Of a DNA stretch of 45,605 bases, positions 3,001 through 44,646 are shown in pieces. Made by a program: the position numbers and the translations under genes. The stretch spans positions 1-45,605 of the forward strand of contig CAWHMU010000015.1 of NCBI GenBank assembly GCA_963830365.1. Reading direction: 5' to 3'. The stretch is from an uncultured Chlamydiae bacterium. GTDB taxonomy: Bacteria; Chlamydiota; Chlamydiia; Chlamydiales; Parachlamydiaceae. The notes under the pieces were generated by a model. The model was not told the origin of the DNA and ran no database searches. It was given only the letters and a program-made list of their open reading frames with translations. The first letter of the stretch is position 1; each line of letters starts with the position of its first letter.

Positions 3001-5713
3001 AGAGCTCTCTTCCCAACCCCACATAAGTGCTGGCCCCGCCGGTAAAGACAAAGGCCATATCCCCTTTGACGGGCTCTTTCCGGAAGACTATCTGTTTGCT
3101 CAGCCACCCCTCTTTGGTGGATGCATTAAGCATTTCCCATGCTTTATGTCGAACGAGATCGCCCTCGGCGGCGGATTTGGCAATGCAAGCCAGCCGGTAG
3201 TTTTCATCATCGGCTACACTTTGGAGGCCATGTTTGAGATTAGCTTTAAGCTGATCGAGAGTTTTGCCAGAAAAAGTCTGAATGATGGGTTTCTTAATGT
3301 AAGAGATCGATTTTGCGGTACGCGGTGTTTTGACAATCCAATGTTGCGCAGAAGCGCCAACAGCGTGGTTTGTCACGCCGATGGTGCAGCTATCCCCTTT
3401 GGGAAGTAAGGGCTCTCCACGCCCTTTAGGGGAACCGCGAAACCAGCGCGACTGCACCATCGTGCAGGCTGCTGCCAGGTGTAGCAAGCCAGAGGCTGCA
3501 TGGGGATCGCCGAAAATCCCTTCAATAGGCGATTCATCTTTTTTATTGCTGATATTATAGCTGGAGTCTGTTTCACCTTTTTCGAGCAGGGCCATGATAT
3601 GATCGCCGGCTTTTTCAGCGTCTGCTAAGCGTTTAATGACGAAAGCCACTGCCGCATCGCCTCTTTCACTTTCATAGATAGCGGGTAAAAGCCTGGCCAT
3701 TTCCTCTGTAAAGGGATTACAGCCAAGATCCACCGCCCCCACTAGGGCGTTATCGATTTCATGGTTCGTTAATGCCATGCAGGCTAGCTGTAAGGCTCTG
3801 TCACCAGAAAGTTCCTGCCCCATGACCGTGATGCCAGGACTAGTGCAGTTGAGCTTTTTATTCAAGCGATTTGCTACCTGATTCATCATATAACCGACCA
3901 CATGAGAGGATGTGATCGATGGCAGGTAGTCCTTTAATTTCATGTCAAACTCTGCAGCGCTGGCATGAGAGTGCGCATTTTTAAGCATATCAGGCAGGCG
4001 CAGGCTGAGATAAAAATAAGCCTCTTTAATTAATGTATCCGCCCCGACGTAAATTCCCAAACGGTCATGATTAAGAGGTGTTAGCTGATGGATGGCATCT
4101 AAGGCGACTTTATAGAAAAGCAGATGTTCGGCGGCTGTCTGGTTGTTTTCTGAGGGGGGGCCGGGCAGTTGGCTTGTTAAAAAGCAAGTCTTCGCGTTGT
4201 GCTCTGTGGTAAGATTTCTTTTCTCATTAGGCAGCTGCCATTGCCTGGCAAATTCGTCCAAAGTGGCGCTGCTTTGTGTTTGTACTGCTAACGCGACAAT
4301 GGCAAAGACTGGATTTTTTGGTTTAACTTTTTTAGCGGATTTTGCAGGAGTTACTTTTTTTGTCTGCGTCGACAGCGATGATTCGTTCCATTCCTCAACA
4401 ATCATGCAGGCATTGTTTCCGCCGAAGCCGAAGTTGTTGATGCAGACGATACGCGGTGTGTCTTCACCCTTCCAGGCGCACGCATCTACAAGCACTTCAC
4501 AAGGCGAATTGGAAAGTTCTGCATTGAAGGGCGCCGCGTTAGGGGTGGGAGGGAGCATGTTATGTTTGAATGCTTGCAACACTTTGATTAAACCGGCAGC
4601 TCCCGCCGCCGTGATGAGATGGCCGAGATTGGCTTTGAGCGAACCTATCGGAATCTTTTTATCTTTGGGAAGAATTCTGGCAATGGCTCTCAATTCGGTG
4701 GCATCGCCCATAGCGACACCGGTGGCATGGCATTCGATATAGGAAACATCTGTGGCATCCACCGCGGCGCTGGTTAAGGCCTGCTGCATGGCACTCACCT
4801 GGCCATCTTCGGAAGGCACAAGCAGGCCCGTCGAGGCGCCATCATTGGAAAGGCCTATGCCTTTGATAACACCTAGAATGGTATTCCCATCGCGGATGGC
4901 GTCGGCCAGGCGTTTGAGTACCACTATGCCCGCCCCTTCGGCGGGGACAAGGCCATTCGCTCCTTTGTTGAAAGGGCGGCTTTCGCCAGTTGTGCTCATG
5001 GCCTTAAGGGCCGAAAAGCCTGTGCTGATGAAGAGGGGGTCGCTGCCACTAATGCCGCCGGCCAACATGAAGTCGACGTCTTTATTCTGCAGCATATCGC
5101 AGGCCGTTTTGATGGCATAAATACTGGAGGCACAGGCCGTTTCGATGCAAAATGAATCATTGCCATCCAGGCCAAATGCCTTGGCAATCAGCATCGCCGG
5201 GAAGCCTGTCATCATCAGATTTTCAGGACAGGCGACAGTCGAGGTAGAAGCAAGTTCAGGGAATAAGCGCTTGAAGAAGAAATTTTCATGGATGTTGATC
5301 AGCGCTCTTGTGGGATAACCAAGGTTTCCTAGAATAACCCCAGCACGCTTGCGCAGCGGAAATTGAGTCTGCCCGGCATCGGCCAGGGCTTGCTTAGCGG
5401 CATAGAGGGACCATTGGAACAAAGGATCAAGCTCCTTGACAAATTCCGGCTCTAGCTGATAGTCGTCCGGGTTGAAATGTCCAGCAAAGCCTTTGATGAA
5501 ACCTCCCCGAGCGGAATAAGTTTTGTTCTTTTCAAAATGCCCTCTTTCTTTTGTCACCACTCGGCTGAGATCCACCCGCCACTCTTCATCGGTCGGCTCG
5601 GATATAGCTGTGCGACCTTCAGCAATGTTATGCCAAAGCTGCTCCGGTGAGAAGGCTTCCGGCAGCACGCAGCCTTGTCCGATGATGGCGATAGGCTCAA
5701 ATTTACTTTTCAT
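1..5713 (-). CDS. pfaC: PfaBC/Pfa3-like PUFA synthase subunit (KS-CLF-AT-FabA-type DH domains), 3' end off window
   Basis: Absent from the ORF track, consistent with no stop before the window edge. ATG at 5713 overlaps the upstream TGA (ATGA). Hand translation gives MKSKFEPIAIIGQGCVLP, KS motifs ETACASS, ECHATG, KANLGHLITAAG and NNFGFGGNN, a CLF-like QELSGDRAL, an AT motif GFCSGE, and DH motifs ESGQADLLLISWLG and GHFKNDPCMPG. Frame spot-checked at 614-670, 1061-1072 and 2795-2812. Confidence 0.92.
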   Translation of the reverse strand, partial: MKSKFEPIAIIGQGCVLPEAFSPEQLWHNIAEGRTAISEPTDEEWRVDLSRVVTKERGHFEKNKTYSARGGFIKGFAGHFNPDDYQLEPEFVKELDPLFQWSLYAAKQALADAGQTQFPLRKRAGVILGNLGYPTRALINIHENFFFKRLFPELASTSTVACPENLMMTGFPAMLIAKAFGLDGNDSFCIETACASSIYAIKTACDMLQNKDVDFMLAGGISGSDPLFISTGFSALKAMSTTGESRPFNKGANGLVPAEGAGIVVLKRLADAIRDGNTILGVIKGIGLSNDGASTGLLVPSEDGQVSAMQQALTSAAVDATDVSYIECHATGVAMGDATELRAIARILPKDKKIPIGSLKANLGHLITAAGAAGLIKVLQAFKHNMLPPTPNAAPFNAELSNSPCEVLVDACAWKGEDTPRIVCINNFGFGGNNACMIVEEWNESSLSTQTKKVTPAKSAKKVKPKNPVFAIVALAVQTQSSATLDEFARQWQLPNEKRNLTTEHNAKTCFLTSQLPGPPSENNQTAAEHLLFYKVALDAIHQLTPLNHDRLGIYVGADTLIKEAYFYLSLRLPDMLKNAHSHASAAEFDMKLKDYLPSITSSHVVGYMMNQVANRLNKKLNCTSPGITVMGQELSGDRALQLACMALTNHEIDNALVGAVDLGCNPFTEEMARLLPAIYESERGDAAVAFVIKRLADAEKAGDHIMALLEKGETDSSYNISNKKDESPIEGIFGDPHAASGLLHLAAACTMVQSRWFRGSPKGRGEPLLPKGDSCTIGVTNHAVGASAQHWIVKTPRTAKSISYIKKPIIQTFSGKTLDQLKANLKHGLQSVADDENYRLACIAKSAAEGDLVRHKAWEMLNASTKEGWLSKQIVFRKEPVKGDMAFVFTGGASTYVGLGRELLHAIPELMTAYDVDDIESMRWVYHSASPKFSLPTYLTLGSAYLSLMHSTLSLAHLKLKPHAAIGFCSGETHAQFAMGIWNDLDQFYANFEHSPMFSKILAGEFQAAKEFFKTDDANWETWIISAPVAQVEKLLQNEPHAYLAYIVSPKETTIMGDGEACRRIVAEIGEDHCRLSGYNAILHCPPANLGKNLWQKLHTRPCRPTNVKIYSSYFGGTYEPTTENVAEAITGQAMHTIDFPKLIQKAWHDGVRIFVEHGPRNILCNAIAEILADKPHLAIPLDKALVSSADQAAMAAAELWCAGVSIDLTPFKLPQTSSSKELVANDSAELRFTYPWHKTLKALPSIEVAAAACEQNDPPASHRHVDAQDMVEAHSFASQLPIESIERPLQRMIVSKSQTKSYLVERQIHYLTEAHRHYIASQQAGKKDYDHLMQQMQQLLLAPSTGSEQLEAQMEAQAEYISLQNPPQPAEAYTHGLLNHSSVPPMSSAAPSSLYALSREQLEVLASGKISSVLGQLFEKQDHFEIQVRMPEPPLLLADRVTDFAGDAGSMQTGTIWTESDVTKDRWFLSQGRIPAGILIESGQADLLLISWLGIDFLNQGLRAYRLLGCTSTFYGRHPRPGDTLKYDIHVDSHANLGGKRLFFFHYDCYVNGELTVSVRNGQAGFFTKQELQESDGVIWNPATAAYTLNTASTSFPQMTTKRAFSKQDMLAYSTGSLMSCFGPEFDTALTHTRSPHSPAGLQHLIDEVTLFDPNGGPAKRGYLKARMELHPGRWFYQGHFKNDPCMPGTLMVQACGDIMGFYMNALGMTLDKDGWVFEIVPESPYTFECRGQAIPSSKELIYELYIDEIIQDPYPTIFAHVMGTVDGHPSFLCERLGIRLMPDWPITSLPVPQEDSTTSLAASIGSLPLDYTSILNCSLGRAAKAMGPNFAMYDDVIPTLHLPGPPYLCMSYISALKATPQVEKAGSTVTAVYDLAQNHWCFAENGSPTVPLCMLTEIALQ

Positions 5714-8055
5714 GAATTGATCTCGCTCAATGTGGCTTCAAGGATGTTTTCAGTGTTGAGTGTACTAGTATGGGTTGTAATGAAGTTGGCATTTATAAAT
5801 GATGTTAGAGCTTGCTGGTTTATATCTAGTAAATGCATATCGACTTTCATCTTGGTCGCAGTTAGTGATGAGATTTTAATCAAACATTTAACTGGTCGAC
5901 TCATTGGCAGGCGGTTATGCATTATTATTTCTTCAAAATGCATAGGCAGCATATATTGCCCTGTATTTTGCCAGTGGCATAACAAACTTAGCTGTGCTGT
6001 GGCATCAAGCTGCATAATTCGGGCGAGCCATGCATCGCGCGTATGACCTGGTGGAACATGTTTATTAAGAAGTGCTAAAGAGCCATGTTCGGAATATCCC
6101 TCGAGCTTTTCTAAAACTTGAAATGCCGGTCCATGGAATAATGATTTATCCACATAGGCTTCTTTAGCCTCGAAGGGATAGCTTTTAAGTTCCATCAGCG
6201 GAGAGATAGCTGGTGGCTGCCTCTCGCTGTCTTTGGGGGCGACTCCCACAGAGCACGAATATCGCTTAATCCCCTCTACATCTGTCATTGCAATGTCAAT
6301 CCATTGTTGGCTATCTTGCCCCTGTTGGACGGGGGAGGCCTCAAGGTAAAATAGATCGCCGCTAGTGTCAAAGTTGTGCAGTAGCAAGCCTTTTAAAATC
6401 CGCAAATTGTGGCAGCCGACAGTTTCATACCCTTGAGTTATGGCTTCGGCGAGGCCGCAGCTCCATACCAGTTGCAGCATCATCGGCACAACGGGAGTAT
6501 TTTGAATGCGGTGGTCATAGAGGAAAGGGTAGGTGGAGCGGTGGATCCATATGATGAAGCGTTTTTTTGCATCACCATTTTTCTTAAGCTGCAGGCTTTG
6601 CAGCGCATCGACCCAGCGGTTGATGGCATCGCCTAAGATGATGGAAACGCTGCGGCTCTTCTGCGCCAGCTCTTTAACAAAGGCCTCTCCTCCTTCCTGC
6701 AGCGGGATGGCTTTGATGCCCATCTTTTCAAAGTGTTGCTGCAAAGCGGTATCGGCCATGCCGCCGGCCCATGGACCCCACAGCAGGCTCTTCACGCGGC
6801 AGCTGTCGCTGCGCGTCCTTTGCTCTTCTTCACAGATCTGGTTGCAGATCTCATTGGCCATGGCGTAGTCGCATTGCCCGACATTGCCTACAAAAGCTGC
6901 AATTGAAGAAAAGCAGCACAAGACTTTTAGGGAGTCTTTCTGTGTGGCTTGCAAGAGGTTTTTAAGGCCCAGCACTTTGGTTTCGAAGACCGAGCGGAAT
7001 TGCTCCAGCGACTTGTCTTTGAGATATTTGTCAGCCAACACGCCGGCGGCGTGGATGACGCCGTCGATTTTCTTCCATTTTGTCCGGACTTTCTTAAGCG
7101 TCTCTTCGACGGCGTTTAACTGACGGATGTCGATAGGAAAATAGAGGACTTCGCTGCCGTTTTTTTCCAGCAGTTGGATGTTTTGACGGGCCTCTCTGCC
7201 ACCCAGAACACGGTCGGCCGCGATTTTAAGGTCTTTGGGGGTAAGCTTTATGGCATCGGCGACAGACTTTTTATATAACGCCTGCTTGATCTCGGTCTCG
7301 GTATGGCATTCTTTGGTTTCTGCCAGCTCGTCAGCCAGCGGCGTGCGCGCCAGGATGGCGATTTTAAGCGGCACCTTTTTGCTGAGTTCGATCAAACAGG
7401 TGGCAGTGACGCCCCTTGCGCCGCCGCTGACGACGATCACATCGCCTTTTGATAAAGGGAAGTCGCAGGCTTGGCCGGCGGTTTCTTCTTTGGCGCTGAC
7501 GCGCTGGCGCCGGCCTTTAGTGTCGATGGCAATTTGGGTGTCTAGTCCGCCGCATAGCAGCTCCAAATAGATAGCGTCGGCGCATTCTTCAGCTGTCGCC
7601 CGGCGGCAGTCGATATCGATGGCTTTGATGGTAGCTTCGGGCCATTCCAGGGCGGCTGTTTTGGCAAGGGCCGCCAGGCCGCCGGACCAGGCTCTATTTT
7701 CGGTGGGATTTTGCAAGCCGAAGGCGCCGCCGGTATCCTGGACAGAGACAAACAGGTTGCCAGGTTTTGACAAGGCGCTAGCGTGCGATGCGGCAAGGGA
7801 GAAGAAGCGCTCATTGAGCGCGATGTAGTTTGCTTCGGCATCCTGTTCCGTGTATTGAGAGCACCCCTCTAAAAATAGTATCAAAGAGGCATCGGCCGGC
7901 GGTGTGGCCGCCAGCTGCGCCGAAATGCCGGCGGCAGCCAGCTTTTCAACCAGGGCATGGGCGATACCGCGGTTGTCAGGGACGACATACAGCGTTTTGC
8001 CTGTAAACAGCTCGGCGAGGGCGATTCCCAAAGGGGGGGCTTCTTCCAATTCCAC
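5710..8055 (-). CDS. PfaA C-terminal half: ketoreductase (KR) plus PKS-type dehydratase; probably translated as the -1 frame continuation of 8094..11999
   Basis: KR motifs VSGGARGVT, HAAGVLADK and FSS...GQCDYAMAN; DH motifs YDHRIQNTPVVP and LFHGPAFQ. The frame stays open upstream of the GTG through 8103. Confidence 0.9.
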   Translation of the reverse strand: MELEEAPPLGIALAELFTGKTLYVVPDNRGIAHALVEKLAAAGISAQLAATPPADASLILFLEGCSQYTEQDAEANYIALNERFFSLAASHASALSKPGNLFVSVQDTGGAFGLQNPTENRAWSGGLAALAKTAALEWPEATIKAIDIDCRRATAEECADAIYLELLCGGLDTQIAIDTKGRRQRVSAKEETAGQACDFPLSKGDVIVVSGGARGVTATCLIELSKKVPLKIAILARTPLADELAETKECHTETEIKQALYKKSVADAIKLTPKDLKIAADRVLGGREARQNIQLLEKNGSEVLYFPIDIRQLNAVEETLKKVRTKWKKIDGVIHAAGVLADKYLKDKSLEQFRSVFETKVLGLKNLLQATQKDSLKVLCCFSSIAAFVGNVGQCDYAMANEICNQICEEEQRTRSDSCRVKSLLWGPWAGGMADTALQQHFEKMGIKAIPLQEGGEAFVKELAQKSRSVSIILGDAINRWVDALQSLQLKKNGDAKKRFIIWIHRSTYPFLYDHRIQNTPVVPMMLQLVWSCGLAEAITQGYETVGCHNLRILKGLLLHNFDTSGDLFYLEASPVQQGQDSQQWIDIAMTDVEGIKRYSCSVGVAPKDSERQPPAISPLMELKSYPFEAKEAYVDKSLFHGPAFQVLEKLEGYSEHGSLALLNKHVPPGHTRDAWLARIMQLDATAQLSLLCHWQNTGQYMLPMHFEEIIMHNRLPMSRPVKCLIKISSLTATKMKVDMHLLDINQQALTSFINANFITTHTSTLNTENILEATLSEINS

Positions 8056-8093
8056 GCAGTAGCGATGCAGGTTGAAGGCCTCCCTTTGGCCGG

Positions 8094-11000
8094 CTACTTT
8101 TTTGAGTCGGCTACACCAACCTCCATATGGCCGGATTGTGCCTTGGCGACGAAGTCTAGAATTTCCCTTAGCGTTTTCAACTGCGTCATTTTGGAGGTGT
8201 CTTGTCCTTCAAGATCGGGCACCTTTTCCTGCAGCGCCGACAGGATTTCCACGCGTTTGATCGAATCGATGCCGAGGCCGGCTTCAAGTTCGGTATCAAG
8301 TTCCAGCATTTCCTTGGGATAGCCGGTATTTTCGGCCACGATATCAAAAAGCATGTCCTGGAAGTTGACAGTGGCTTTGGCGGCCGGAATCTCTTTCGGT
8401 TTTGTCTGTACCACGGCGGCGGGAGCGACGGGTGGGCGAGGTGTTGGTGGAGCTAACGGTTGTGTGACTGCGCGTTGCATGTCGGCAAATTGTCCGCCCT
8501 GCCGAGACTGTTGTGGCTGCGGCATGACTGGCGACATGGAAGCTGATGCGCGCGCGGGGGCGGCAACTCTTGCCAGCGGCTGAGGTGCCTGTGCCCGTTG
8601 TTGTGCTTGCATTGGTTCTTCCATGGGCATGAAAGGCATTGGTTCGATTTCCCAAGCAGCTGCTTGATAACTGTCATCTAGGTCGATGGCTAGGGTTTGG
8701 CCATCATGATGGTTTGGTGCGCCGGACATATGGCCGATCTCGTGCAGGGCAGTCTGTACGATTTTAAGATAGGCGCGATGGCTTTCTGTCAGAGCCTGTT
8801 GAAATTGCCTTTGGGCGGAAAGGGCATTGGTTTGCAATACCTGCAGGGTGTGCAGCAACGAGCTGTCAGTTCGGCGCATAGGTTGTGGCAATTGAGCAAG
8901 TTCTCTAGTCTGATTTGATGACTGGTTATCAGCATGGGGCTGATTTTGTGATACATGATGGCTTTGTGCACCGGGCAGGTTGACCTGCATTTGGCCTTCA
9001 CCGAAAGATGGAGGAGGACCGAATTTGCGAGTATCTGGTGAATCTGAATGTGCCATGATTGGTGCTCCTTTATCGTTAATTTTTATAGTTTCGATCGTTT
9101 TTTGTATTTGATGATTCGGCGCCGTCTTAGCGGCGGCCCCTTTGGCCGGCGGATAGGGTTTGCCATATAGGGAGCCGTTTAGCTGGATTGTCGCCGGCGA
9201 GCGTTTAATCGACTCGTCGCTGGCTGCAGCGGCGATGCCTTCCCATAAGTGTTTGAAATGCAATTCCACGCCGCTAGCGGCGAGGGTGGCTAAGGCATTC
9301 CAAAGGGACAGCAGGCCGGACTTGCCTTTCTGATCCAGCGAGACGGCGGTGTGGTCTTTATTTTCCAGGCAGTGATGTACCAGGCCAGTTAAGATAGCTT
9401 GTGGACCGAGTTCGACAAATACTCTTACGCCATCGGCATAAAGCTTATCGACTTGTTCCTGGAATCTGACGGACTTGGCCAGCTGGTTGGCCAGCAGCTC
9501 TTTAATCTGTTTTGCCCCTTTAGGATAGATATCGGCGGTAGTATTGGCAAAGACAGGCGTTTTGGCCCCTTTTATAGCGATGGTATCTAAAAAGGCCGCA
9601 AAAGGCTTGACGCTAGCCTGCACAAGTTTTGAATGAAAAGCACTGGCCACCGGCAGGCGCTGGTAGCGTATTTTGTCCTGGCCGAGCTTCTGTTCCAGAG
9701 TTTCGATTTCCTGGACGGCGCCGGAGACGACCTGCTGCTTGGGGGAGTTGAAGTTGGCGATGGCTACATCGATTTTAGCTTCGTCGATGAGCTTTTGAAT
9801 TTGGTCCGCCGGCGCAAACACCGCCGTCATGGCGCCGGGAATCACAGCCGCCTGCTTCATCAGCTCGCCGCGCTTTCTCAGGATGGTCAGCATCTCATGC
9901 TCGTTGGCAATGATGCCGCCGGCAAAAAGGGCCGGAATTTCACCCGAGCTATGCCCTGCCGCATAGTGAAAGTCCATTCCCAAGCTGTTGAGCAGCGAAA
10001 GTTGGGAGAGGGCCACGGCACCGATAGCAGGCTGCGCCCATAGCGTCTCTTTGAGGCGCGCTTCCTGCTTTTGTTTTGACACCTCATCGAAGGCCGAAAT
10101 GGGGAACACGACTTCATGTAACTTTAAGTCGGGATCGAAAGCCAGGTCGGCGGCGCGGTCCCATACTTTGCGGCAGCTGTCGAAGGTCATGGCCAGGTCC
10201 TTGCCCATGCCGCAATACTGGCTGCCCTGGCCGGCAAACAGCAGGGCGACTTTTGGCTGCTGCAGGCCCACACCATAATGTGCTTCATTCTGCATGGAGA
10301 AGGGAGTTTCCTCATGCTCTTTGATGCGCTGCAGGTGCAGGGCCAAGCGCTTTTTAGCTTCATCTTTGTCTTTGGCAAGCACGGCCAGGCGGTGCTTGTG
10401 TCTGACTGAAAACTGCTGCTGACTGTCTTTGGCAATTTGCATTAGAGGGGCTTTGTCAAGCTGTGCAATCAGCGCATTTCCCAGTTCAAGCAGTTCTTTT
10501 CCATTGTCTGCCGCCAGCAGCAGCAGATGGTCTTCGCCAATGTAGTATTTTAAGGGCTGATTTGCGCCGCGGTATTCTTCGACACACACATGGAAATCGG
10601 TGCCGCCAAAGCCGAAAGCGCTCACTCCCGCTTTGCGGGTGGAAGCCTCGCTATGGATCCAGGGTTTGCTTTGCGTATTCAGATAGAGGGGGCTCTCTTG
10701 GAAATTCATCTTCGGATTTGGCCGGTCCACTTTGATGATGCCAGGCAGCACTTTGTGGTGCAGCGACATCACCGCTTTGAATAGTCCGGCTGCCCCGGCT
10801 GAGGCTTTGGTATGACCAACTTGCGCCTTGACACTTCCCAAGGCGCACAGCTGCATTTTGGACGGTTTGCTCTCTAAAAAGACTTTGCTTAGGGCCTGGA
10901 ATTCCACCATGTCGCCGACAGAGGTGCCGGTGCCATGCGCTTCGACCATCTCGACTTCATTGAGTCCGTAACCGGCCTTGTCATAGGCGCGGCGCAGGGT

Positions 11001-11999
11001 GAGTTCCTGTCCTTGCGCCATCGGCGCATAGACGCTCATCCCCTTGCCATCCGAAGCGCTGCCGATGGAGCGGATGATGGCAAAGATTTGGTCTCCATCC
11101 CTTTCGGCATCTTCGAGCCGGCGCAGGGCGAAGAGGGCGATGCCCTCTCCCAGCATGGTGCCGTCGGCTTTATCGGAAAAGGGGCGGCAATCACCCTCTT
11201 TTGAAAGGGCCCCTGTCTTTGAAAAGCAGGAAAACATGAACGGGTCGTTAAGGGAATCTACACCGCCGGTGATGGCCAGGTCGGCTTCGCCGGTTTCAAG
11301 TTCCATGATCGCCATCTTGATGGCGGCTAGGCCGCCGGCACAGGCGGCATCGACGATGCAGTTGGTGCCTTTTAAATCGAAGCGGTTGGCGATGCGGCCG
11401 GCAATGACGTTGCCTAGACAGCCGGGGAAGGTATCTTCGGTCCATTTGGGGTATGTCTCCATGATGCGATGGCGGATGGCGGCGATCTGTGTTTCGCTTA
11501 AGCCTTCTTTGCGCATGCCTTCTTCCCAGTGGGGCCAGCCGAGCATGCCACTCATTTCTGCCGTCAATGTTGTCGGACCGGCAGCCCCAAGGATGACGCT
11601 GATTCTTTCTTTTGACACCTTCTGATCTCTAACTGAGAGCGTTTCGGCGAGCAGCTGTTTGGCGACGACCAAGGACAGCAGCTGGGCGGAGTCGGTGGCT
11701 GAAATGGTGTTTGGCGGAATGCCGAACTCCATCGGGTCGAAGGGCAGGGCCGAGATGAAGGAGCCACGCTTGGTGTTGATCTTGCCGGGCTTGCTGCGGT
11801 CGTCATCGTAAAAGTCTTCTGTCAGCCAGTGGCTGGAAGGTACTTCAGTAATGAGGTCTTTGCCGTTGACGATGTTCTGCCAGAAAGCGGCCGATCCTTT
11901 GGACTGCGCAAATAGCGCGCCGGTGGCTACAATGGCGATGGGAGTATGCATTTTCGAAGATTGTCTTTCGGATTTGCTGTCTTTTGTTTTAGCTGGCAT
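8094..11999 (-). CDS. pfaA: PfaA N-terminal half: KS-MAT-linker-single ACP
   Basis: KS motifs DAACAGG, EAHGTGT and GHTKASAG; MAT motifs GQGSQY, GHSSGE and AFHS; one ACP with LGIDSIKRVEIL. Confidence 0.93.
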   Translation of the reverse strand: MPAKTKDSKSERQSSKMHTPIAIVATGALFAQSKGSAAFWQNIVNGKDLITEVPSSHWLTEDFYDDDRSKPGKINTKRGSFISALPFDPMEFGIPPNTISATDSAQLLSLVVAKQLLAETLSVRDQKVSKERISVILGAAGPTTLTAEMSGMLGWPHWEEGMRKEGLSETQIAAIRHRIMETYPKWTEDTFPGCLGNVIAGRIANRFDLKGTNCIVDAACAGGLAAIKMAIMELETGEADLAITGGVDSLNDPFMFSCFSKTGALSKEGDCRPFSDKADGTMLGEGIALFALRRLEDAERDGDQIFAIIRSIGSASDGKGMSVYAPMAQGQELTLRRAYDKAGYGLNEVEMVEAHGTGTSVGDMVEFQALSKVFLESKPSKMQLCALGSVKAQVGHTKASAGAAGLFKAVMSLHHKVLPGIIKVDRPNPKMNFQESPLYLNTQSKPWIHSEASTRKAGVSAFGFGGTDFHVCVEEYRGANQPLKYYIGEDHLLLLAADNGKELLELGNALIAQLDKAPLMQIAKDSQQQFSVRHKHRLAVLAKDKDEAKKRLALHLQRIKEHEETPFSMQNEAHYGVGLQQPKVALLFAGQGSQYCGMGKDLAMTFDSCRKVWDRAADLAFDPDLKLHEVVFPISAFDEVSKQKQEARLKETLWAQPAIGAVALSQLSLLNSLGMDFHYAAGHSSGEIPALFAGGIIANEHEMLTILRKRGELMKQAAVIPGAMTAVFAPADQIQKLIDEAKIDVAIANFNSPKQQVVSGAVQEIETLEQKLGQDKIRYQRLPVASAFHSKLVQASVKPFAAFLDTIAIKGAKTPVFANTTADIYPKGAKQIKELLANQLAKSVRFQEQVDKLYADGVRVFVELGPQAILTGLVHHCLENKDHTAVSLDQKGKSGLLSLWNALATLAASGVELHFKHLWEGIAAAASDESIKRSPATIQLNGSLYGKPYPPAKGAAAKTAPNHQIQKTIETIKINDKGAPIMAHSDSPDTRKFGPPPSFGEGQMQVNLPGAQSHHVSQNQPHADNQSSNQTRELAQLPQPMRRTDSSLLHTLQVLQTNALSAQRQFQQALTESHRAYLKIVQTALHEIGHMSGAPNHHDGQTLAIDLDDSYQAAAWEIEPMPFMPMEEPMQAQQRAQAPQPLARVAAPARASASMSPVMPQPQQSRQGGQFADMQRAVTQPLAPPTPRPPVAPAAVVQTKPKEIPAAKATVNFQDMLFDIVAENTGYPKEMLELDTELEAGLGIDSIKRVEILSALQEKVPDLEGQDTSKMTQLKTLREILDFVAKAQSGHMEVGVADSKK
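8097..8103 (-). other. Candidate -1 ribosomal frameshift heptamer A_AAA_AAG
   Basis: Minus strand reads TCA AAA AAG TAG. The heptamer is in X_XXY_YYZ phase and the -1 frame is the KR-DH ORF. Confidence 0.6.
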
Positions 12000-12028: not shown

Positions 12029-13666
12029 TTATAGTTCAAATTTGCGCGGGAAGTAGCAAAAGGCTGCATTCGGCACTTTTATCCCGTAGGTGCGCACTTG
12101 GTGCGCGCGCGTGATTTGGGCGGCTCCGTCGATCAGATTCAAGGCTACCTGCTTGATGTGGCGGCTGTCGGCTTTTTCCAGGAATGAGCCGGCCACCCAG
12201 CGGTTGAAAGACCCCATGGCAGGTCCGCACCAGATCTGGTAGTCGAGGCGCCTGTCGGCATCGCCTTTGAGTGGCCAGCGGCTGGAGTTGCCGAGGTACC
12301 AGCGGAAGACTAGCGCCATGCGGTGCTTTGGATTTATGTCAGCTTCGGCAATCTGCTTGGGGTCTATTTCTTCGAAATAGCGCACGGTCTCTTGCCAGAT
12401 CTCATCCAGCGAGGCGCGAAAAATATTCTTTTCGATATTTTGTCTTATCGATGCCGGAATCTCTTCCAGCGAGTTGTAGCGGGAATAAATATCATAAAGC
12501 TCGTTGCCCCGCATCGGCATCAGGATGCCTTTTTTAAGCACCTGGACCTTAACGCCCATTTCAAACATGTCGGCGGAGGCTGTCATGGCTACGTCGGCAA
12601 TACCGGCCTGGGCCAAAAGCGCCCTGCCATCGGCGGAAAGGCCGGATTCGCAGCATCCTTGATGGACAGAACCCAGCAGCACATAAGCGGCCCCTAGCGC
12701 GAAGGCGGCGGCAATGGCCTCCGGCGTGCCCAAACTGCCGGCGGCGCCGATGCGAATTTGGCGATCGTAATTATAGTGGGCGGCAAGCTGATCGCGCAGG
12801 CGTACGATGGCGGGGAAGAGGGCATTCAAGGGCCTGTTGTCGGTATGGCCGCCGGAATCGGACTCCACGGTGATATCTTCTGCGAGCGGTACCTGGCGGG
12901 CCATTTCGAATTGTTCGCTTGTGATCTGACCTTTATTGTATAGGACCTCCAGGATCTTTTCGGGAGCTGGCGAAAGGAAATGGCGGGCGACTTCTTCGCG
13001 CGAGATTTTGGCAAAGATGTGTGTCTGGCGGCAAATTTTCCCTGTCTGGTCTCGGTAAAGGCCGGCCACGCTATAACGCACGACGCTTGGTGTCAGGTTC
13101 ATAAAGGCCGAAGTTTCTACGCGTGCTACCCCGTGCTTAAGATAAAGCTCAGTGATAGCCTCTTCCAAGCCTGGCTGCTGGGGAGAATGGATCAAATTCG
13201 CTCCCCACACCAGTCCATCGCCTTGCAGGGCGGCCTTTATCGAAAGGATCTCTTTTTCCACCCTTTGGGGGGAGAGGCCGGCGGCGCCGAAGAAGCCGAG
13301 CATGCCGACCTGGGCCAATTCAATCACAGTCTGGGCGGAGGCGATGCCGCGCGCCATTGATCCGCCAACGTAATTGAAGCGGGTGTGATGGGTTGATTGG
13401 AAGGTTGGGTCGCCCAGCCATTCAGGATACAGCGGCGGCAGTACAGCCACCAGTGGTAAGGCGTTGTGATGAGGCTCAAAAAGTACTTCTCCAAATGCAG
13501 GCTGACCACCGACTCTAAGTGCCAGGCGGTGGCGGTGGGCGTCAAAGACTAGATAGAGGGTACGCCTGAAATCGCATAGCATGGCCAGTTCGTCATCATT
13601 GACACTTTCAGTCGTATACGACGTTGCATGCGTGGGGGTCCAATAGCCGATGGCATTTAGTGTCAT
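12029..13666 (-). CDS. pfaD: PfaD-family enoyl-ACP reductase (FMN-dependent)
   Basis: GGSMARGIAS, ESDSGGHTDNRP, ADMFEMGVKVQVLKKG and DYQIWCGPAMG motifs; first gene of the cluster. Confidence 0.95.
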   Translation of the reverse strand: MTLNAIGYWTPTHATSYTTESVNDDELAMLCDFRRTLYLVFDAHRHRLALRVGGQPAFGEVLFEPHHNALPLVAVLPPLYPEWLGDPTFQSTHHTRFNYVGGSMARGIASAQTVIELAQVGMLGFFGAAGLSPQRVEKEILSIKAALQGDGLVWGANLIHSPQQPGLEEAITELYLKHGVARVETSAFMNLTPSVVRYSVAGLYRDQTGKICRQTHIFAKISREEVARHFLSPAPEKILEVLYNKGQITSEQFEMARQVPLAEDITVESDSGGHTDNRPLNALFPAIVRLRDQLAAHYNYDRQIRIGAAGSLGTPEAIAAAFALGAAYVLLGSVHQGCCESGLSADGRALLAQAGIADVAMTASADMFEMGVKVQVLKKGILMPMRGNELYDIYSRYNSLEEIPASIRQNIEKNIFRASLDEIWQETVRYFEEIDPKQIAEADINPKHRMALVFRWYLGNSSRWPLKGDADRRLDYQIWCGPAMGSFNRWVAGSFLEKADSRHIKQVALNLIDGAAQITRAHQVRTYGIKVPNAAFCYFPRKFEL

Positions 13667-40622: not shown

Positions 40623-41645
40623 TTAAAAATCAAATTTCGCCCTGACTGTTAAGCCGGAGAGAGCGAGATCTCCATGCGGCCCAGGGGGGAGGATGGCAGA
40701 CTGCCACTGCCACTGATTGAAAAAGAACTGCTGTTCCCAGCCGATCAAGAATGCGGCGTGATATTGTCCACACAGCCAGGTATCCCATTTAATTCCAACG
40801 CAGCCATCGGCAATGGCTTTGGCGATCCAGTAGTTATCTTTGTTATAACTTAGCAGAAATTGTGAAGGGGAGATGTTTTCAGACACACTCAAGCTATAAT
40901 AGCCCGGAATTAAAGAAAAAGCCCCATCAACACATAGCGATAACCCATATCCGAAGCCCCATTGCGTTTCCAAGCCAGTCCTCAGACCGACGCCCCAGAA
41001 GTTGTTTTTAAAACGCAGCACATCGGGATTGCCAAAGATGGGGTTTTGCAAGCTATAATTCACATGATGGTGTTCTTGTAGCCATTCGGCTCTAAGACCG
41101 ACATGCGGCTTTAGAATGAAAAAATCGCAAAAGGAAAATTCTTTGCTGAGCTGTAAATCGATGAAGTCAAGATTCAGTTTGAAATGTGAAGAAGCGGCTT
41201 CAAGGAACTGGTTTAAAACAGGTGAAGCCAGGATTTCCTGCAACGTGCCACCGGCAGGAACAGTTAAATTCCCTTTGGCATCGGCATTAAAGTGTGTCCA
41301 AGCCAGTGACAGGTTAGCACCATTATACGGCAGATTTTTGCCAACGCCCAAGCGGAACCCGCAATCCCAATCAAAATGGGGTGCTTTATCGGCGCCGACA
41401 TTTATGCGATTGTCCGTGCTTCTAAAGGCATATTCAAGCCCGGCTTGATGGGCCTTCCAACAAAGCAAGTCAGCAAAAATATCAACGGCACATTCACTTT
41501 CACAGCCGGCTGCCGGTAGCTGTTCATATTCGCTGCCATATTGATTGGGAGCCACCTCATAGCCGTTATAGTCATAGTCTGTAGCGGCGATAACCGAAGA
41601 AAAAGCCAGGGCGGATAAAACGGCGCTCTTTAGAAAAATCTTCAT
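40623..41645 (-). CDS. Outer-membrane beta-barrel (Lpg1974/MOMP-like porin)
   Basis: Signal peptide, WDCGFRLGVG, FWGVGLRTGL and a C-terminal Phe (GLTVRAKFDF). Confidence 0.85.
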   Translation of the reverse strand: MKIFLKSAVLSALAFSSVIAATDYDYNGYEVAPNQYGSEYEQLPAAGCESECAVDIFADLLCWKAHQAGLEYAFRSTDNRINVGADKAPHFDWDCGFRLGVGKNLPYNGANLSLAWTHFNADAKGNLTVPAGGTLQEILASPVLNQFLEAASSHFKLNLDFIDLQLSKEFSFCDFFILKPHVGLRAEWLQEHHHVNYSLQNPIFGNPDVLRFKNNFWGVGLRTGLETQWGFGYGLSLCVDGAFSLIPGYYSLSVSENISPSQFLLSYNKDNYWIAKAIADGCVGIKWDTWLCGQYHAAFLIGWEQQFFFNQWQWQSAILPPGPHGDLALSGLTVRAKFDF

Positions 41646-42590: not shown

Positions 42591-44646
42591 ATGGAAAAAA
42601 TATGTTTTGCGCTCGCGCTATTGATACCCATATTAGCGCCGGCGGATACAATGTTAGATCTTTTAAGGATCGTGCCTGCCGCACAATCACAGGACTATGT
42701 AGCCAATAAAAAGCAGTTTCAGCTCCACACGCTAATTACCGAACAGCGCCATCCTAAAACATGGGATTTAAGCCAAATCATCCAAACTGATACGCTGGCC
42801 GGTATCCAGGCTTTGCTGAGTGTTGATACCGATATCGCTCAGAAATTTATCGCACTTTCAGATCATACAACCCTATTGGATCAGGCTGCCTCGGCGGTAA
42901 AAAAAGCTATTTTAGAAAACAAAAAAGTCTATATCTACGGCTGTGGCGCTACCGGCAGACTGGCCAAACAGATGGAAAGCTCTTTTTGGCGTCCTTTTTG
43001 GAAAATGATGCAATCCCTCCCCCATTGGGAAGCTATTAAAAGCTCTTTTCCGGATATTGAAAACCGTCTGATCGGTGAGATGACCGGCGCCGACCGTGCT
43101 CTGATAAGTTCTTTAGAAGGCTTTGAAGATCTGCAGCTGATTGGGGCATTACAGCTTGAAGATCATGGCAACCAATGGGGAGATGCGGTTTTTGCCATCA
43201 CCGAAGGCGGAGAAACATCCTCAGTAATCGGCACCATCTTAGCCGCCCTGAGACAGTACCCTGAAAATGATGCCAACAGCGCTACCGAAGCCCAACAGCG
43301 TCTCTATTTCATCTATAATAATCCCGACCAGGTGCTGCTGCCATATGATAGAAGCCGCAGTGTCATTGAGAACCAAGCCATCACCAAAATCTGTCTTTGC
43401 ACAGGACCGCAAGCGATTACGGGTTCTACCAGAATGCAGGCCACGACGAGTGAGACTTTTGTCATGGGCATTATCCTTGAGCAAGCCCTCTATGAATTGC
43501 TTGAACCTCATCTTTCATCCACCGAGCTGGCAGAGCTGGGTTTCCAGGCCTCCAACATGCAGGAGAGACTGTTGAGCTTTTTAGCAGTGCAACAAGCCGT
43601 GAATGCATCCAGGGAGGCGCTCAGTCTGTTGACTGATCTGGAAGCTGCGACCTGCCGCAATAATGGCTTTTCGACATATTTTGCAGAGGCGGCGCTGATG
43701 ACGGTGTTTACCGATTCCACCGAACGCTCTCCTACCTTCAGGCTCTCTCCACTGGATACTTATGACGCCGCGCCAAGAAAGTCGTGGGTGCAGGTATGGA
43801 CACCGGCGGTAGATAAGCTTAGCGCCTGGAAAAGCTTATTGGGACGCCCCTTTTATGGTCTGGAGAAGGAATTCTATGCCCAACAATTTTCGCAAGGCAT
43901 TGAAGATGCCTATTTAAAAGCGATGGCTCTCAAAAGCTTGGATAAAGCAGGTAATGAGCAGCAGTACCTGTATGACTTTTCCTATTCCCAAGCAAACGTA
44001 GCTGCGCATGGCCCGCAGCAAAATGATTTGGGCGTCATGGTCCTTTTTGCCGATGAAATAGCTCAATTGACCGATGACTTTTCACCATTTAAGAGCTGGC
44101 TGAAAACTTTTGCCAGACAAGCAGGCCAAACTGGCCGTGATCTTGCTGCCTGCTGAGCTGCTGCCTGTTGAAAATGCTGCCATGCAAGCTATCCATGCGA
44201 TGGCGCCGGACATACTCGTCTTGCAATTGCCACTAGATATTAGCCGGGATCCTTTGAAGCTACGTCAGCATGTGGGCTTGAAAATGCTGCTCAATGCCCA
44301 TTCCACCGGCGTGATGGCGAAATTGGGCAGAGTTGTCGGCAATACCATGACCAGTGTCGATCCCGGCAATTTAAAACTGATCGGCCGCGCCACCTTCCTG
44401 ATTTTTAGCCATGTGAACGATAAGCTCTCTCCCGTAGACAAAATCTCCTACGCCGAAGCCAATGCTGTGCTTTTCGATGCCATTGCCTACGCGCAAAACG
44501 CTCAGAAAACAGGCCAGAATAGCGAGGTCGGACTGAGTGTCATCCGCATTCTGGAAGCCTTGCGCCATAAAGCCTATATCTCTTGGGAAGAGACCGAAGC
44601 CATCTTGCTACAATGCGGACTCGAGGCGTATTTAAACACATTTTAA
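42591..44646 (+). pseudogene. MurQ/GCKR-like SIS-domain protein split by a +1 frameshift near 44110 (pseudogene or assembly error)
   Basis: The first ORF has YGCGATGRLA, EGFED and GPQAITGSTRMQA. The overlapping +1 ORF has the MurQ-like C-terminus KMLLNAHST...GNTM..V...NLKLIGRA. Confidence 0.75.

Follow-up and report, generated by a model that had tools for sequence, protein, structure and literature searches.

To our knowledge, programmed frameshifting is known in few non-mobile bacterial genes. According to the accessible portions of the articles cited here, dnaX (tau/gamma) uses a -1 programmed ribosomal frameshift at A_AAA_AAG in E. coli and slippage at a run of nine A's in Thermus, and where dnaX consists of two ORFs, these are recoded to the long subunit (PMC3711429). 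The chlD magnesium/cobalt chelatase genes are also -1 frameshift genes, for which 10-63% frameshifting has been measured (PMC3711429, PMC9227772). In signals of the IS3 family, an X_XXZ_ZZN motif is accompanied at 6-17 nt by an SD-like element, and the three -1 motifs of highest efficiency in E. coli are A_AAA_AAG, G_GGA_AAG and C_CCA_AAG (PMC4066793). Known transcriptional slippage requires more than seven A's (PMC3711429). Split pfaA1/pfaA2 of pfa cluster Types D and H have been treated as two genes (PMC3098273), and the word "frameshift" is absent from the main texts of PMC3098273 and PMC4882568 on pfa clusters. No programmed frameshift in a fatty-acid or polyketide megasynthase was found in the literature searched, the scope of which excluded the PMC4066793 supplements and the GeneTack database; no PKS or PUFA entry occurs in the main text and two supplementary files of PMC3711429, and no PKS/PUFA term in the first 300,000 characters of PMC5009743 or in bioRxiv 10.1101/2025.10.02.679949.

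We analysed a window of 45,605 nt, the whole stretch of DNA considered here, from an uncultured Chlamydiae bacterium (Parachlamydiaceae; GCA_963830365.1, contig CAWHMU010000015.1), in which a pfaA-type gene is split at A_AAA_AAG-TAG. The sequence evidence points to a programmed -1 ribosomal frameshift at this site, with a probability of roughly 0.7, and suggests that a short enzyme and a full-length one are likely made from one message.

Organization of the pfa locus

The split gene has the PfaA/Pfa2-type order KS-MAT-ACP-KR-DH and is clustered with pfaD- and pfaBC-type genes (Table 1), the start of the latter overlapping the KR-DH stop via ATGA. The KS-MAT-ACP ORF covers positions 6-1285 of the TIGR02813 profile and the KR-DH ORF positions 1880-2467, and the halves, scanned separately, score 927 and 266 bits (curated cut-off 1010). 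The motifs DAACA, EAHGTGT, GHSSG and GIDS were all found in the KS-MAT-ACP ORF, and the predicted structure of KR-DH matches the fold of modular PKS ketoreductases. Tandem ACP repeats are a hallmark of omega-3 PUFA synthases; a single ACP is present here (Pfam, residues 1219-1282 of 1301). The genome also contains three PPTase-family genes, an anti-SD-type sequence and, among the 35 tRNAs found in this incomplete assembly, UUU as the only tRNA-Lys. In addition, a second frame break is likely in the window near 44110-44156, in keeping with the original prediction that frames are broken elsewhere near the window end.

Table 1. Features of the pfa locus and its frame junction (window coordinates)
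Feature	Position	Strand	Basis or remark
pfa1/pfaD-type enoyl reductase, first gene in cluster	12029..13666	-	TIGR02814, 613 bits (cut-off 449)
KS-MAT-ACP ORF, 1301 aa, zero-frame short product, C-terminus DSKK-stop	8094..11999	-	Pfam KS, AT, PP-binding
KR-DH coding region, -1 frame, 796 codons from slip site	5710..8100	-	KR and DH domains
pfa3/pfaBC-type KS-CLF-AT-like-DH gene, extends past contig end	2..5713	-	Domain content
Slippery heptamer A_AAA_AAG, in X_XXY_YYZ phase	8097..8103	-	Sequence
TAG stop of short product, adjoining heptamer	8094..8096	-	Sequence; layout common to L379, L380, L321, L378, L361, L215
Upstream SD-like GGAGGT (GGAGG 8124-8120)	8119..8124	-	About 16-17 nt before heptamer
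Downstream SD AAGGGAGG 8086-8079 (GGAGG 8083-8079) and in-frame CTG 8070-8068	8068..8086	-	Candidate rival KR-DH start
Predicted long stem, begins 7 nt past heptamer, pairs part of downstream SD	8028..8089	-	z -1.21
Arg codon of LHRY, start of structural KR subdomain, 3 codons before annotated GTG (8055)	8062..8064	-	Near-invariant

Sequence features of the frame junction

At the junction the minus strand reads GAC TCA AAA AAG TAG (A6 at 8103-8098, G at 8097). The central elements of the original prediction were confirmed: the heptamer is in phase and abuts the stop, the -1 frame runs into KR-DH to give a fusion of about 2096 aa, the junction falls at a domain boundary after the complete ACP, and an in-frame CTG lies 8 nt after GGAGG. 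The -1 frame is stop-free from 8208 to 5710 and reads KKVAGQREAFNLHRYCVELEE, and the computed join of 2096 aa contains no internal stop. As a check on chance, A_AAA_AAG followed by a stop ends only 2 of the 1796 ORFs of at least 200 aa in the genome, the pfaA-type ORF1 included. Adjacent ORFs in the genome favour the -1 frame generally (147 vs 108), which counts against slippage.

The flanking elements gave a more mixed picture. Of the SD-like sequences predicted upstream, GGAGG stands; it lies 16 nt before the heptamer, just at the limit of the 6-17 nt spacing considered in PMC4066793, whereas GGTG is not among the stimulators that Sharma et al. searched. The short GC stems predicted downstream did not hold up, with the 60 nt 3' of the heptamer folding no better than shuffles (z +0.68). 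The long stem was not significant (26/200 shuffles equally good), and z for all four pseudoknot-free folds of downstream structure ranged from +0.68 to -1.21. An upstream SD at the limit of its working range and a non-significant downstream structure both count against slippage, as does the in-frame CTG, which has a strong SD at a distance of 8 nt and would retain the Arg of LHRY. This Arg was found in 269 of the 281 fused homologs described below, and a strand is predicted over residues 12-20 at the KR start (block pLDDT about 87). The annotated GTG was rejected as the KR-DH start because it would remove the near-invariant Arg and part of this first strand.

We propose that ribosomes would slip back one base at A_AAA_AAG-TAG part of the time, so that termination at TAG would yield the 1301-aa KS-MAT-ACP protein and slippage the 2096-aa KS-MAT-ACP-KR-DH protein, the short form then being identical to the N-terminal part of the long one. 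In the shift, two tRNA-Lys(UUU) may re-pair in tandem, moving from AAA AAG to AAA AAA, a step presumably stimulated by the upstream GGAGGT and perhaps also by the downstream stem. The most speculative step concerns purpose, which might be to provide more KS-MAT-ACP than KR-DH for the synthase complex.

Homologs of the split gene

In protein-level comparisons, the closest homolog, P0242, is 67% identical and ends in ADTKK (KK-stop), and the closest homolog of the KR-DH half, P0002, is 63% identical and has no ACP. Both are Logan-only, and because their contigs are equal in size (22,956 bases each), they probably represent one independently assembled split locus. The KK-stop is kept in this homolog despite a 6-residue indel just upstream of KK.

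No pfaA was detected in 60 relatives, in which the only matches were to modular PKS and SDR proteins (best 35-37%, to modular PKS KR domains), and the pfa cluster was found in 0 of 48 genomes of the same family. One other pfaA, L235 (genome G722), turned up among 350 genomes sampled from the phylum and 400 from the order (one genome unscored); its halves lie in a -1 relation, its second half has a separate ATG 3 codons upstream of the Arg, and there is no slip site. Judged by these features, L235 is a true two-gene split. A single-protein scan of the genome-contig collection returned no match, the family of G199 (3 genomes) no new match, and 151 genomes around Pelagicoccus one new weak match.

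Survey of the ACP/KR junction

Of 377 loci (L021-L397), 26 lacked a recognisable ACP or KR motif in the stretch and could not be classified; removal of another 24 (21 duplicates and 3 loci with N gaps) left 327 non-redundant pfaA-type junctions. The order sampled around L023 was a myxococcotal group, and canonical Shewanella-/Moritella-type pfaA lay outside the survey. Shared ancestry of the loci and sampling centred on earlier matches mean that the counts do not represent independent events.

The results revealed 281 fused junctions, 43 split in -1 (the window included), 3 split in +1 and none with an in-frame stop; thus 43 of 46 split loci are in -1, and 34 of these 43 have either a slippery heptamer or at least 8 consecutive A's (16/25 outside Desulfobacteraceae). 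Slippery sequences at this junction, among them A_AAA_AAG, G_GGA_AAG and C_CCA_AAG, are kept in relatives from several bacterial phyla, and the heptamer-plus-stop layout of the window recurs in L379, L380, L321, L378 and L361. The homolog comparison called for by the original prediction came out in its favour: nearly all split pfaA are in -1 and have a slippery site where ACP and KR meet, and the closest homolog has the KK-stop. Its premise that PfaA is normally one chain has to be qualified for the split pfaA1/pfaA2 described as two genes in PMC3098273. The absence of a canonical slip site from 9/43 -1 loci and 197/281 fused loci counts against slippage.

XXX_AAA_N was counted across the first 140 fused loci, where it occupies 23/3640 codons of the last ACP-KR linker, 3/4082 of inter-ACP linkers and 231/248,617 other codons. 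Of 36 fused heptamer loci, 23 have a -1 stop no more than one codon further on, vs 55 of 788 background positions, and in fused relatives the slip signal is often retained with a -1 stop behind it, an arrangement also known from dnaX. At 9/10 split XXX_AAA_N, 18/23 fused XXX_AAA_N and 10/13 fused XXX_TTT_N sites, an SD-like motif is present 6-17 nt upstream, vs at only 1/23 and 7/48 A-run sites (background 146/788). Among the 34 slip-site -1 loci, 19 have no ATG, GTG or TTG before the conserved Arg, and a canonical start with SD is present in only 2. Two complete Persicobacter records share an identical G_GGA_AAG, one being split and the other fused with a -1 stop. In the FastTree phylogeny (deep branches weak), the split loci of Desulfobacter group in a single clade of 16 rows with support 92 and stay in -1 with either A9 or A10; phase variation is disfavoured for the A-run class, in which the frame is retained across differing run lengths. 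In Desulfobacteraceae, A9+ runs are also found inside the KR region (19/435 control windows), and at KK pairs such runs occur outside the linker too (60/479, vs 65/87 inside it), which counts against slippage.

The candidate slip site is a recurrent feature of the family, in split and fused layouts alike. Across the family, sites with heptamer and SD may work by ribosomal slippage and A9-A10 runs without SD by transcriptional slippage, and lineages may switch, in a dnaX-like manner, between a split layout, where a slip would give the long form, and a fused one, where it would give the short form. On balance, we think that in PfaA-type iterative synthases the linker between ACP and KR probably acts as a family-wide recoding switch with at least three slip chemistries, through which a single gene would produce a short and a long subunit. 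These chemistries would be lysine heptamers with SD, C_CCT_TTY heptamers and A9-A10 runs, re-invented or retained across several phyla in split and apparently intact genes.

Alternative explanations

The split types described in PMC3098273 (accessible part) raise the alternative of two ordinary genes, pfaA1 and pfaA2, with KR-DH translated from CTG 8070 or by re-initiation after TAG and acting in trans, and the heptamer incidental or a relic. L235, with its ATG 3 codons before the Arg, is a clean example of such an arrangement, and at the present locus the CTG follows GGAGG by 8 nt and retains the conserved Arg. However, CTG is a rare and weak start codon, and the SD before it is partly paired in the predicted stem, itself not significant. 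A CTG with SD occurs in no other slip-site locus, and the scarcity of canonical starts with SD (2/34), the rarity of A_AAA_AAG plus stop at ORF ends in this genome and the retention of KK-stop across the indel in the closest homolog also speak against two genes, which we consider unlikely. CTG initiation and frameshifting could also operate together at this locus.

If the true run were A7, the gene would be one in-frame PfaA; homopolymer loss of one base would mimic -1, and a further frame break is probable near 44110-44156. Yet the homopolymer is just 6 bases, A/T run lengths in the genome fall smoothly up to 10, and only 18 long-ORF overlaps lack a nearby start, divided 9 and 9 between frames. 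Moreover, a separate assembly has the closest homolog split in the same position, with the KK-stop, and an assembly error is therefore very improbable. RNA polymerase slippage adding one extra A would agree with the A9-A11 runs at the same site in many homologs, but the run here is A6, below the more than seven A's of known cases (PMC3711429, accessible part) that many homologs reach, and SD-like motifs mark the heptamer class and mostly not the A-run class; as the cause at this locus it is highly doubtful. A recent inactivating frameshift in a decaying, horizontally acquired cluster would suit the lack of matches to the cluster in the 60 relatives and the 48 family genomes searched, but is scarcely credible when both halves and both neighbours are open, the checked KS, AT, ACP, KR and DH motifs are present in the halves, three PPTase-family genes are available and the break is common to a homolog 33-37% diverged.

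Implications and comparison with known systems

If the programmed -1 frameshift is real, recoding would set the subunit composition of PUFA-type synthases. Many pfaA1/pfaA2 pairs would then be single genes, wrongly annotated in many genomes as two genes or pseudogenes, and many "intact" pfaA would also make an overlooked KS-MAT-ACP subunit tuning the reduction of the product or the supply of carrier. When pfa genes are refactored or codon-optimised, one of two products would be silently lost. Cultured strains are among the sister pairs of opposite layout (Persicobacter, Desulfobacter and relatives, Bradymonadales), which makes the proposal directly testable.

According to the accessible parts of PMC3098273 and PMC4882568, the locus resembles the Type L/myxobacterial pfa1-pfa2-pfa3 PUFA synthase, with the ER gene first, then KS-MAT-ACP-KR-DH and then fused pfaBC, and Type D pfaA is split at the same KS-AT-ACP/KR boundary; it differs from the Type L/myxobacterial clusters in having one ACP only, and its pfa3 end lies beyond the contig. 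Like the IS3 family, it has an X_XXZ_ZZN-type motif and, at a distance within 6-17 nt, an SD-like element, but pfaA is a non-mobile biosynthetic gene, and no strong stem-loop was found in pseudoknot-free folds. With chlD it shares annotation as two adjacent genes that are fused in relatives and, if the frameshift proposed here holds, the joining of the two by slippage into -1 at an A-rich site, although the protein family is another one, and frameshifting was measured for chlD whereas the case for pfaA is built on sequence. Compared with dnaX, pfaA encodes a lipid megasynthase known here from its sequence, its SD is farther off, no significant hairpin is present and the zero-frame stop directly follows the heptamer. 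The likeness to dnaX lies in the same heptamer, in a short and a long subunit (predicted for pfaA) with a common N-terminus, and in fused and split layouts in which ribosomal and transcriptional slippage would interchange across lineages.

Structure of the split pfaA-type gene in the window

The pfaA-type gene of the window is split into two halves, ORF1 and ORF2. As originally predicted, the KS-MAT-ACP frame ends on A_AAA_AAG directly before a stop codon, and translation of the join revealed that a -1 slip on this heptamer fuses it to the KR-DH frame in a stop-free chain of 2096 aa. ORF1 comprises KS-MAT and a single ACP, which is separated from the stop by about 19 residues; ORF2 comprises KR-DH, and the two cover different parts of the PfaA model TIGR02813. 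In the assembly of this genome (2.73 Mb, 82% complete), A_AAA_AAG plus a stop terminates only 2 of 1796 long ORFs. The organism is probably chlamydia-like, to judge from a sub-threshold Chlam_OMP6 match. Judging from sequence, we consider the feature to be genuine, and its most likely explanation is a programmed -1 ribosomal frameshift, one case of a family-wide recoding site (probability about 0.7); having both protein forms would presumably be advantageous. Profile matches identified a pfaD-type ER gene upstream and a pfaBC-type gene downstream, a gene order shared with Type L and myxobacterial clusters.

Coordinates of features in the window
Feature	Position	Strand	Remarks
ORF1	11999-8094	minus	1301 aa; 3' end GAC TCA AAA AAG TAG
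ORF2 reading frame (-1)	open 8208 to 5710	minus	
Slippery heptamer A_AAA_AAG	8103-8097	minus	
ORF of 352 aa	15914-16972	minus	Peptidase_C58 match weak and sub-threshold
Outer membrane protein	40623-41645	minus	Legionella_OMP family
GKRP/MurQ-like gene	42591-44646	plus	apparent break near 44110-44156

The GKRP/MurQ-like gene goes on after its break in the +1 frame, where MurQ models match too, which would be compatible with a pseudogene or with an error of assembly. On C39 (plus strand, near 41230) of the same genome, an ORF stops directly after C9 and is overlapped by a +1 ORF without a nearby start, possibly reflecting phase variation or an error. Four genomes of the same family (G003, G004, G018 and G035) encode very large modular PKSs, in open frames of up to about 9500 aa.

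Split loci in the pfaA family

We collected 377 pfaA-type loci and left out 26 that could not be classified, 21 duplicates and 3 with gaps; the remaining 327 were fused (281), split in -1 (43, including the window) or split in +1 (3), counts that are not independent of kinship, since sampling followed matches and relatives therefore inflate them. An in-frame stop was the cause of the split in none of the 327. The 43 -1 split loci contain an A-run of at least 8 (23 loci), XXX_AAA_N (10) or XXX_TTT_N (1), and a canonical slip site is absent from 9. The original prediction had asked whether A_AAA_AAG plus stop is kept at the ACP/KR junction of split homologs; the layout of loci L379 and L380 is identical to that of the window, and L321 and L378 have G_GGA_AAG, then a stop, with GGAGG upstream. 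Among 87 classified Desulfobacteraceae loci, 15 are split, all in -1 and with A9-A11. In the KR tree, whose deep branches are weak, split loci fall at about a dozen separate places, and the window and P0002 form a pair (support 100) within a larger group to which the split loci L034 and L117 and the fused L129 also belong.

P0002, the closest homolog of ORF2 (756 aa, 63% identical), is a KR-DH protein without ACP, while P0242, the closest homolog of ORF1 (1246 aa, 67% identical), has the C-terminus ADTKK. Because both are Logan-only and each comes from a 22,956-long contig, we infer at the protein level that they probably represent a single locus split at the window's position. Among the matches listed, fused homologs show at most 40% identity. 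KK at or near the C-terminus, just past the last ACP, was found in the KS-MAT-ACP-only proteins P0277, P0294, P0301, P0303, P0307 and P0311.

Other junctions were observed as well. In the unclassified L233, outside the count, the ACP frame ends near 847 soon after at least 8 A's and the -1 frame reaches the KR motif, so that this is probably one more split case. The related loci L360, L362 and L366 share a +1 split at one position, roughly 80 codons past the ACP motif. GGAGGGG precedes the stop at a short distance, an SD-equipped start codon is absent, and the junction may be a distinct +1 recoding site. In one clade of -1 split loci (L365, L368, L370-L373; CCY then TAG at the split in five of these six), a GC-rich inverted repeat was seen by eye just downstream of the split, and likewise after C_CCT_TTT in the fused sisters L363, L364 and L375.

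Candidate slip signals in fused genes and the probable mechanism of slippage

Within the first 140 fused loci, the last ACP-KR linker has 6.3 XXX_AAA_N sites per 1000 codons, compared with 0.7 in the linkers between ACPs and 0.9 in the remainder. Of 36 fused loci with a heptamer, 23 have a -1 stop at most one codon after it (background positions: 55 of 788), and the sole AAA codon of the whole L129 ORF sits in its slip site. Fused Desulfobacteraceae loci carry A9-A12 in this linker in 42 of 72 cases (control windows, A9 or longer: 19/435). Two complete Persicobacter records both contain G_GGA_AAG; in one the gene is split, and in the other it is fused and a -1 stop is present. In a locus on a Nostoc plasmid, the -1 frame opens at A9. 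However, a slip site is absent from 197 of the 281 fused loci, which counts against retention of the signal in fused genes.

Desulfobacteraceae have a further in-frame A9-A11 cluster (PxKKK[VI]Y) in the structural KR region, about 104-115 codons past the last ACP motif. In Nostoc flagelliforme (L398), the structural KR part, annotated as hypothetical (5055-5828), could be reached by -1 at A9, and the catalytic KR-DH is another separate ORF (5983-7749).

SD-like motifs (list of Sharma et al., 6-17 nt upstream of the slip site) were present at lysine-heptamer sites in 9/10 split and 18/23 fused loci, and at A-run sites in 1/23 and 7/48, respectively, against a background of 146/788. Because these motifs lie upstream of heptamers and mostly not of A-runs, the data fit ribosomal slippage at heptamer sites and transcriptional slippage at long A-runs, a duality reported for dnaX (PMC3711429). 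The three heptamers reported as most efficient in E. coli (PMC4066793) are all among those found at pfaA junctions. The window's own site is of the heptamer type: the predicted SD-like GGAGG is present 17 nt upstream, and tRNA-Lys UUU is the sole tRNA-Lys detected in the genome. The GC stems proposed downstream did not hold up, as folding found no significant structure downstream of the window heptamer.

Possible independent initiation of KR-DH

The annotated GTG at 8055, originally noted to lack a properly spaced SD, is an unlikely start: 269 of 281 fused homologs share an Arg that it would cut off, together with the beginning of the first predicted strand. The real rival to frameshifting is translation of KR-DH on its own from CTG at 8070, which has GGAGG 8 nt upstream and would retain the Arg. 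Free-standing KR-DH genes exist, since L235 is a clean two-gene split with its own ATG and without a slip site; its genome belongs to the order of the window's genome but to a different family, and L235 does not group with the window on the tree. Across the 34 slip-site -1 loci, 19 lack ATG, GTG and TTG upstream of the Arg, and a start codon with an SD precedes it in 2.

Comparison with known recoding systems

PMC3098273 presents split pfaA as a pair of genes, and PMC13291983 treats it so as well. In agreement with the original statement that no described case in a PUFA synthase was known, we found no report of a frameshift in a PUFA or polyketide synthase in the literature searched, which included two recoding surveys and one review, with subscription papers and some supplements beyond reach. 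A programmed -1 frameshift at the window's site would work like the recoding of dnaX and chlD, while for the pfaA family no description of such recoding was found in these searches.
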